DNA of 40,005 nt from a virus, in IMG/VR virus record IMGVR_UViG_3300031539_000118; one strand, given 5' to 3'. The position numbers and the translations under genes were made by a program. Of the stretch, positions 10,928 through 11,080 are shown piece by piece. Under the pieces are notes generated by a model, which saw only the letters and a program-made list of their open reading frames with translations, was not told where the DNA came from and did not search any database. The first letter of the stretch is position 1. The number at the start of each line of letters is the position of its first letter.

Positions 10928-11002
10928 TGGCTGGGAAAGCAGGGATCGAACCTGCGACCACCCGATTAGCGTCAGGCGCTCTACCAACTGAGCTATATCC
11001 CA
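10928..11002 (-). tRNA. tRNA-like gene, CCA encoded, non-canonical anticodon arm
   Basis: Reverse complement TGGGATA-TA-GCTC-AGTTGGTA-GAGC-...-GCAGG-TTCGATC-CCTGC-TTTCCCA-G-CCA has canonical D and T arms. The acceptor stem has one T.T mismatch. The only anticodon hairpin I can draw is CCTGA[CGCTAA]TCGGG (6-nt loop) or a 4-bp stem with an 8-nt loop. Identity unresolved. Confidence 0.5.
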
Positions 11003-11007
11003 AAAGA

Positions 11008-11080
11008 CCGGGGAGGCTGGATTCGAACCAAGCGCCTAAAGTCTGTTGAGACCTGCGCTCTACCACTAAGCTACTCCCCG
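11008..11080 (-). tRNA. tRNA-like gene, no CCA, non-canonical anticodon arm
   Basis: Reverse complement CGGGGAG-TA-GCTT-AGTGGTA-GAGC-...-TTCGAAT-CCAGC-CTCCCCG-G has a perfect 7-bp acceptor stem and canonical D arm and T loop. The anticodon region GCAGGTCTCAACAGACTTTAGGCG folds only as AGGTC[TCAACA]GACTT (6-nt loop) or AGGT[CTCAACAG]ACTT (8-nt loop). No 5-bp stem with a 7-nt loop is possible. Confidence 0.5.

Follow-up and report, generated by a model that had tools for sequence, protein, structure and literature searches.

Two adjacent tRNA genes with mis-sized anticodon loops

The IMG/VR virus record IMGVR_UViG_3300031539_000118 (referred to here as the window) is a complete metagenomic contig of 40,005 bp from a large phage. 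Its minus strand carries two tandem tRNA-like genes, tRNA A and tRNA B, which follow orf115, a gene for a protein of 115 amino acids (aa) that stops 8 nt before tRNA A, and precede a terminator-like hairpin (Table 1). The anticodon loop, with its 7 nt and its U33, is among the most invariant features in biology. An earlier reading of this DNA, made from its letters and a list of open reading frames (ORFs; hereafter the sequence-only reading), had noticed that neither gene seemed able to form the canonical 5-bp stem with a 7-nt loop. ARAGORN found five tRNA genes in the window, with A and B exactly at the positions given beforehand by that reading, and called both of them 'tRNA-???' with 2-base anticodons (aa and ct, respectively). 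Since a 2-base anticodon in this output means a 5-bp stem closing a 6-nt loop, the program returned 6-nt rather than canonical 7-nt loops for both genes. The Rfam tRNA model (RF00005) covers A and B over their full length, with scores above its gathering score of 29, and its alignment deletes one loop position in B and inserts one in A. When the RNA strand was checked by hand, 5 bp with 7 nt was impossible in any register of either gene. Compared with a canonical tRNA having the same D and variable loops, B is 1 nt shorter and A is 1 nt longer, the surplus nucleotide lying in the anticodon arm. The anomaly is alike in kind and opposite in sign, and we agree with the sequence-only reading that its presence in both neighbours is unlikely to be coincidental, though one gene is short and the other long.

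tRNA A resembles a class-I tRNA of 73 nt, with a discriminator G and no encoded CCA. Its anticodon arm, AGGUC-UCAACA-GACUU, closes a 6-nt loop and can be opened into a 5-bp stem with a C.U mismatch and an 8-nt loop (CUCAACAG); the predicted energies are -3.0 kcal/mol for the 6-nt form and +0.3 kcal/mol for the 8-nt form, a difference of about 3. A U is kept at the equivalent of position 33, followed by four bases and then a purine. In blastn the closest match of A was a phage tRNA-Ile (78%), with no close relatives. tRNA B has 75 nt, an encoded CCA and G73; its arm, CCUGA-CGCUAA-UCGGG, has a 6-nt loop with GCU or CUA as possible triplets, and folds at -5.0 to -5.9 kcal/mol in the 6-nt form versus -3.9 kcal/mol in the 8-nt form. 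The other arms, initially judged convincing, are nearly so: both genes have a 7-bp acceptor stem, a 4-bp D stem with G18-G19 and a 5-bp T stem with a UUCGA-type loop, with single mismatches that spoil them slightly. In B this is U6.U67 in the acceptor stem, and in A a C.U atop the anticodon stem and C49.C65, or a bulged U, in the T stem. Neither gene has the canonical combination of a 5-bp stem, a 7-nt loop, U33 and a purine at position 37.

Four other assemblies, two of them from ENA and two from Logan, contain the 153-base A-B pair without any change; some of them may have reads in common with the window's sample. This identity excludes sequencing error, which the sequence-only reading had already thought unlikely, and neither loop anomaly lies within a homopolymer run. 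A and B are thus two real, adjacent tRNA-derived genes with mis-sized anticodon loops in a large phage. Their transcripts would be expected to be excised by RNase P and RNase Z, with the CCA-adding enzyme completing A, and to fold as tRNA-shaped molecules. Ordinary triplet decoding by them should be impossible, because U33 is missing or the loop is mis-sized.

Table 1. Features of the cassette and related elements, in window coordinates
Feature	Position	Strand	Evidence
tRNA A	11008..11080	-	ARAGORN; Rfam tRNA, 48.6 bits; blastn; arm energies
Spacer UCUUU (5 nt) between tRNA A and tRNA B	11003..11007	-	sequence
tRNA B	10928..11002	-	ARAGORN; Rfam tRNA, 53.4 bits; alignment to phage tRNA-Asn
orf115, Tad1/Acb2-family gene	11089..11436	-	profile; Pfam; phrog_2428
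G+C hairpin with U-tract, intrinsic-terminator-like	10748..10801	-	fold -29.6 kcal/mol, z=-3.3; terminator scan
Mosaic boundary	11465..11516		blastn and junction sequences
tRNA-Asn(GUU), canonical	4041-4116	divergent from tRNA-Glu	ARAGORN

A cassette with a Tad1/Acb2-like gene

Among the proteins encoded around the tRNA pair, only that of orf115 gave a usable series of relatives, with 175 homologues in a graded series in the protein search. A profile built from 36 of these matched the solved Tad1 structure 8kbb with E=1.1e-15, and the Pfam family Acb2_Tad1_hairpin (PF24729) was matched by 15 of the 36 members, orf115 alone scoring below threshold. The protein is divergent: it is without most of the C-terminal residues R102, R106, V111, E112 and G113 (the R..DRE.RGVEG motif), three of the five CQVDT positions are missing, and its nearest relatives likewise are without several near-invariant residues. 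By these matches orf115 is a divergent member of the Tad1/Acb2 family of cyclic-nucleotide sponges (anti-Thoeris and anti-CBASS). Its size and its location among phage accessory genes also resemble those of known sponges; the missing residues set it and its closest relatives apart, and ligand binding is putative. The Tad1-like genes of the cassettes have pN/pS values of 0.23-0.50 (with pS up to 0.75), and such purifying selection implies that the cassette as a whole is not decaying. We found no description in the literature of a link between the Tad1/Acb2 family and tRNA genes.

The hairpin, which follows tRNA B at about 125-180 nt and precedes a kinase gene, probably marks the end of a transcription unit of orf115 and the tRNAs; A and B would then be co-transcribed with orf115. 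To the right of the mosaic boundary, three assemblies (the window, L001 and L002) carry three unrelated sequences (positions 1-6424 of L001 and 1-1044 of L002). To its left they agree at 99.7-100% identity over 11.4 kb, a stretch that includes the cassette and the kinase operon, and the junction is sharp. One shared left side joined to three upstream contexts indicates that orf115, A, B and the terminator behave as one module.

Origin of tRNA B

Over its full length, B is 88-89% identical to annotated tRNA-Asn(GUU) genes of unrelated phages, and the sole gap in the alignment with these relatives is U33. B further differs by U35C, by the weakening of U29-A41 to U.G and by the acceptor mismatch U6.U67, so that its loop reads C-GCUAA where phage tRNA-Asn has CUGUUAA, and the anticodon GUU is not kept. 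The alignment places B as a descendant of the phage tRNA-Asn(GUU) lineage that has lost U33 and acquired the anticodon-like triplet GCU. We ruled out that B is a chimera of two tRNAs, as both halves are tRNA-Asn-like. A separate, canonical tRNA-Asn(GUU) is present in the window besides the Asn-derived B. At 78 nt from it lies a tRNA-Glu(UUC) (3887-3962, minus strand) with the loop UUUUCGA, which has G37 instead of the usual A.

Related cassettes vary at position 33

Five related assemblies (L014 to L018, the L014 group) carry an ORF 69% identical to orf115 followed by two tandem tRNA genes, in the same layout as in the window. The L014 phage is of another kind, with an HK97-type capsid, an S78 protease, a portal and an intein-bearing terminase. 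The orf115-like gene, the tRNAs and the terminator-like hairpin form a mobile cassette that occurs in unrelated phage backbones and differing neighbourhoods. In the L014 group a canonical tRNA-Asn(GUU) comes first. It is followed by t2, whose arm reads CCCGA-CUUACUAA-UCGGG, with a true 8-nt loop, in four of the five assemblies and CCCGA-CUACUAA-UCGGG, with a 7-nt loop and the anticodon ACU, in the fifth (L016); t2 is without A14. This single base costs 8.5 bits in Rfam (47.9 for the 8-nt allele vs 56.4 for the 7-nt allele). A sequencing or assembly artefact, such as a homopolymer indel, might be suspected here, as the two alleles differ by U vs UU. However, four assemblies have the 8-nt allele, A and B do not differ between the window and four others, and their anomalies lie outside homopolymer runs; we give an artefact practically no chance.

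A further cassette, L022, has a tRNA (Rfam, 37 bits) with the arm CCUGA-AGCUAA-UCGGG-UGGUC, that is, a 6-nt loop without U33. It matches B at 20 of 21 positions of the anticodon arm and variable loop, but at only 11 of 25 when the acceptor stem, the T stem and position 73 are compared, pairing there being largely maintained, and the adjoining Tad1-like genes have diverged to pS=0.75. All these cassette arms (B, the L022 tRNA and t2) fit CCYGA-N1-3-RCUAA-UCGGG, a pattern whose loop varies in length on the 5' side only. B and the L022 tRNA have no U33, t2 of L016 has one and t2 of L014 has two, giving loops of 6, 7 and 8 nt. The constant 3' half, RCUAA, includes U36-A37-A38, which t6A formation is reported to require (PMC13276492). 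The tRNA-Phe(GAA) of the window (39868-39941, plus strand) has C33 in a loop of normal length, 7 nt (UCGAAAC), and an A4.C69 mismatch in the acceptor stem. The alteration recurs at position 33 in related cassettes. The odd tRNAs score 37-56 bits in Rfam, and among them and their canonical relatives pairing holds in 94.6% of the cloverleaf pair cells, and both sides have changed in 14 of 21 pairs, figures that show only retention of the fold, the compared tRNAs being paralogues.

The cassettes also recombine. Behind the tRNA pair of L016 lies a fragment (4569-4745, equal to the end of L038) with 97.5% identity to the 3' half of orf115 from the window. Two cassette types therefore stand in tandem there, and the contig stops about 50 nt short of where tRNA A would start. 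In L019 (3905-3964) a copy of the cassette tRNA-Asn gives way to unrelated sequence 4 nt short of its 3' end. ARAGORN does not call this gene, and the Rfam match spans model positions 7-64; the site is a recombination junction inside a tRNA gene. Such observations could mean that the tRNA-like DNA, with its conserved D- and T-arm motifs and 3' ends, serves as short homology or att-like sites for the shuffling of anti-defence cassettes, and that decoding is irrelevant. Two junctions lie exactly at tRNA 3' ends (the L019 truncation and a CCA-to-CCU change in t2 of L016), and universal D-arm and T-arm motifs flank the stretch that B has in common with the L022 tRNA. The tandem cassettes of L016, the three upstream contexts of one cassette and its presence in unrelated backbones would fit as well. 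However, the main mosaic boundary lies upstream of orf115 and not within a tRNA, no integrase is present nearby, and the concentration of changes at position 33 would be left unexplained. We regard a role in recombination as improbable.

Beyond these loci, relatives were scarce. Scans of IMG/VR with the A-B junction, the B arm, the A arm (with free loop length) and a B-type arm (with free 5' loop length) gave no relatives; the 5' half of B matched only phage OLIVR5, and the t2 arm only the contig of L014 itself. One scan of JGI metagenomes with the T arm of A gave two chance matches in non-tRNA DNA, and one scan of GTDB genomes gave no matches. Near the more distant homologues of orf115 we found no tRNA genes.

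The Tad1-like gene of L014 (4340-4400) has an in-frame TGA, and its homologue in L019 (3836-3883) runs 18 codons further; in L014, 16 codons past the TGA are still conserved (RRERLKRTMHDDK and the preceding residues), and the TGA of the L014 group is a read-through site or else arose recently as a nonsense mutation. Directly downstream of the second cassette tRNA of L014 (4600-4645) there are three copies of the tandem repeat CAACTACCCAT. In the cultured Serratia phage Kashira (L040 8246-8322; ON287374.1 56245-56321), an annotated tRNA-Phe has a 4-base anticodon and an 8-nt loop in ARAGORN. This gene is 97% identical in one sister phage and occurs in two records only, and its annotation as tRNA-Phe illustrates that abnormal loops pass unnoticed in deposited annotations.

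Possible decoding by abnormal loops

The sequence-only reading had raised the possibility of +1 frameshift suppressors, for which 8-nt anticodon loops are characteristic. B, however, is short by one nucleotide, and both arms favour the 6-nt form. An 8-nt loop in B needs A31-U39 broken and would still miss U33, and that of A (CUCAACAG) needs a C-G pair opened above a stem that already has a C.U mismatch. The +1 sites that it had proposed to look for, including the overlap of the clamp gene with the gene upstream, did not materialize: across the 40-kb window, in-frame GUUG or AGCG, or a UAGC stop context, occurs at no real same-strand +1 junction. The sole quadruplet matches fall in ORFs antisense to longer minus-strand ORFs or to a HEARO RNA (described below). 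The window uses the standard code, with long ORFs intact. When TAG or TGA is read as sense, the longest ORFs grow by at most 6 codons, and when TAA is read as sense ORFs fuse, as expected for the commonest stop (the 34 ORFs of at least 150 aa end in TAA 17 times and in TAG 6 times). This test also rules out stop-codon recoding, a candidate because ARAGORN offered CUA/Pyl as an alternative for B. A frameshift-suppressor reading of A and B is therefore not supported, less firmly for A on its own than for B, although the idea of an 8-nt loop is not baseless for the wider family, given t2 of L014.

It could be argued that the genes nevertheless decode unconventionally, the 8-nt forms (t2 of L014 and opened A) reading the quadruplets AGUA and GUUG as +1 suppressors, or triplets despite the enlarged loop, and the 6-nt forms decoding somehow. 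The 8-nt loop of t2 is unambiguous, sits on a perfect 5-bp stem and is the majority allele (four of five assemblies), and A has kept the U, four bases and purine noted above. Natural decoding tRNAs with 8-nt loops are known (PMC3113583, PMC5009743), and B, the L022 tRNA and t2 all retain the U-A-A at 36-38 that, in the source cited for it above, is needed for t6A37. Nevertheless, B and the L022 tRNA are one nucleotide too short rather than too long, the 8-nt form of A is worse by about 3 kcal/mol, the code is standard with its long ORFs intact, and a matching quadruplet is missing from all real +1 junctions, the clamp overlap included. Moreover, the anticodons GCU and ACU are of serine type and the bodies of class I, which makes charging doubtful under the identity rules of SerRS and AsnRS. 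We think decoding of this kind less probable still than a role in recombination.

The +1 suppressors SufB2, SufJ and sufD and engineered quadruplet decoders share with our genes an abnormal arm length; t2 of L014, with its true 8-nt loop and an extra base beside U33, comes closest, and A can be drawn with 8 nt. In contrast to them, B and the L022 tRNA are one base short and A favours its closed 6-nt form; in addition, those are selected suppressor mutants, whereas these are natural phage genes for which we found no frameshift targets. A 2016 review of recoding states that nearly all tRNAs have standard loop sizes; its short list of natural exceptions, of which none is known to frameshift, includes 'tRNAs in a phage' (PMC5009743). 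The yeast mitochondrial tRNA-Thr decodes with an 8-nt loop (PMC3113583). These cases resemble ours in being natural departures from the 7-nt rule, phages included, but they are enlargements only, in yeast tied to codon reassignment, whereas here the code is standard and two loops are shrunken. In mycobacteriophage Bongo (Cluster M), an ARAGORN run found no abnormal loops. What remains is the other suggestion of the sequence-only reading, pseudo-tRNAs or tRNA-like RNAs with another role; the evidence points here, without deciding which of the two.

Possibly remodelled arms or young pseudogenes

Our preferred explanation, to which we assign a probability of roughly 0.4, is that A and B are tRNAs, or tRNA mimics, whose anticodon arms have been remodelled in the service of counter-defence. 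Host tRNA-cleaving defence nucleases, which cut in or beside the anticodon loop, would exert the pressure under which the arm is remodelled, and the phage would gain tRNA mimics or decoys that cannot be cleaved; genes with 7-nt, and perhaps those with 8-nt, loops might instead supply nuclease-resistant replacement tRNAs. Delivery would be in one cassette with a nucleotide-sponge anti-defence protein. A fuller version, in which tRNA mimics with a deleted, doubled or substituted U33 travel with a Tad1-like sponge in a mobile anti-defence cassette and act as RNA decoys that resist or titrate arm-cutting nucleases, loop length itself being the evolving character, is more tentative, and we think it rather less likely than not.

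Several results point to remodelling. The tRNA bodies have been kept while length changes hit position 33 in both directions, and B has its 6-nt arm in common with the L022 tRNA despite different acceptor and T stems. The C33 of tRNA-Phe and the selected, Tad1/Acb2-like orf115 point in the same direction, as does an enrichment over control phages. In 61 control tRNAs from six phage regions ARAGORN found one abnormal loop length, and U33 is present in 59 of 60 seven-nt loops. An abnormal loop length or a base other than U33 thus affects 5 of 14 distinct cassette-group tRNA genes vs 2 of 61 controls (Fisher p=0.002), or 3 of 12 when A and B, which triggered the search, are left out (p=0.029); both figures are weakened as support by the small control sample and by the related loci having been reached via the finding itself.

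Known biology provides a setting for such a role. The anti-phage nucleases PrrC, PARIS AriB, retron PtuAB, OLD and Schlafen cut in or beside the anticodon loop (PMC13056530), and phage tRNAs are established counter-measures to tRNA-cleaving nucleases (PMC10264068, PMC11464382, PMC11555353). The published examples (T5 tRNA-Lys against PARIS, tRNA-Tyr against retron Eco7/PtuAB, and mycobacteriophage tRNAs) are, like our candidates, phage-borne with changes in the anticodon arm. For A and B, phage origin is supported, and the arm of B differs from those of its canonical relatives. The published tRNAs, however, carry base substitutions, keep a 7-nt loop and still decode, whereas here the loop length itself changes; A and B would not retain decoding, as a 6-nt loop or a surplus nucleotide misfits the standard loop. 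A and B also differ from the published ones in adjoining a gene of a recognised anti-defence class.

The same genes could also be described as young tRNA pseudogenes: the cassette would once have had working tRNAs, one of Asn type and one other, which became dispensable in an accessory region under constant recombination, suffered indels in the anticodon loop with little further decay, and may still be transcribed to no function. We take this explanation seriously and rank it next, close behind and likewise short of even odds. A decoding-essential feature has been lost (both loops are mis-sized, and B has lost U33), and decoding is not expected from a 6-nt loop without U33. The stems of A, B and the L022 tRNA have extra mismatches, the last scoring only 37 bits; t2 is without the universal A14 and has 7 or 8 nt among near-identical strains; and the tRNA-Asn of L019 is truncated. 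The phage could spare such genes, given the separate canonical tRNA-Asn(GUU) in the window and the little use made of AGY codons (about 15 per thousand). Relatives are absent from the IMG/VR, JGI metagenome and GTDB genome scans, and one damaged arm could have spread by recent DNA exchange. Arrays of tRNA genes on mobile elements are known to include undetected or pseudo members, as in the trn operon of Anabaena, where 3 of 26 genes have no detectable tRNA (PMC8421152).

Like that operon, the locus has tRNA-like genes on mobile DNA that are defective in essential features and lie beside working tRNAs; unlike there, the defects recur at a single position across tRNA bodies and are linked to a selected anti-defence gene. 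The indels are not scattered as in simple decay. In two tRNA bodies, gains and losses alike fall at position 33 or next to it, with the rest of the cloverleaf, T loop and G18-G19 intact, and one 6-nt arm is found in two bodies with differing acceptor and T stems whose pairing is largely maintained. The enrichment relative to control phages and the purifying selection on the neighbouring Tad1-like gene also speak against pseudogenes. Dead DNA, finally, is usually purged fast from phage genomes.

A number of points weigh against the preferred, counter-defence explanation. We know of no natural 6-nt anticodon loop that has been shown to function. In the literature that we searched, no tRNA decoy against a defence nuclease is described, and we found no report of six-membered anticodon loops or of variation in the copy number of U33. 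Published counter-defence tRNAs retain 7-nt loops, and an eLife paper on anticodon-loop mutations of phage tRNAs is silent on insertions and deletions. Every odd tRNA is otherwise blemished, by stem mismatches in A, B and L022 and by the missing A14 in t2. The 7- and 8-nt alleles of t2, found between very close strains, could be a neutral polymorphism; the truncation of the L019 tRNA-Asn by recombination shows that cassette tRNAs can be lost; and the very recent DNA exchange seen in L016 (the 97.5% identical orf115 fragment) means that the arm shared by B and L022 may be a gene-conversion tract rather than a sign of long conservation.

The interest of the locus, whose role in counter-defence is putative, lies mainly in the pattern at position 33 and in the linkage to anti-defence. 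That phage tRNAs can act as weapons against tRNA-cleaving immunity is a recent insight, limited so far to base-substituted versions that still decode. If loop-length variants are indeed maintained as uncleavable mimics or decoys, they would add an RNA-based mechanism of counter-defence, and the 'undetermined' tRNA calls now discarded or mislabelled by annotation pipelines would acquire a functional meaning. If they are young pseudogenes, the locus would still be a clear example of tRNA genes swapped and broken at the junctions of anti-defence cassettes.

Other features of the window

Genes of the window include those for a DnaB-type helicase, a phage-type sliding clamp, DnaJ and a phrog_2426 protein whose best relatives are in PBS1/AR9 jumbo phages and ViI-like phages. 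The homologies of DnaB, the clamp and the phrog_2426 protein to large phages argue against a cyanobacterial chromosomal origin, which a HEARO RNA and a vault-like protein had suggested.

Directly past the tRNA terminator lies a minus-strand operon (6757-10653) for a hybrid histidine kinase with a receiver domain, a 601-aa ART-PolyVal ADP-ribosyltransferase and a baseplate-hub/lysozyme-like protein, which is unusual phage cargo. The ART-PolyVal protein found no homologue but itself among 5.8 billion proteins, and the hybrid kinase has no homologues between 100% and about 40% identity.

A full-length match to HEARO, an RNA of the IscB omega-RNA type, lies at 13006-13246 (minus strand, 122.5 bits), in a segment that is missing from the sister assemblies L001 and L002. 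In the 279-aa ORF downstream of it (11955-12794, minus strand), sequence searches of Pfam, PHROGs, NCBIfam and PDB gave no IscB, RuvC or HNH signal, and the ORF immediately upstream (13248-14129, minus strand) encodes a ParB-like nuclease. The HEARO RNA thus appears to be either orphaned or partnered by an unrecognised protein within the phage. On the plus strand (15283-17937), the phage encodes a protein of 884 aa with the shoulder and repeat domains of Major Vault Protein and an SPFH/Band-7 domain.

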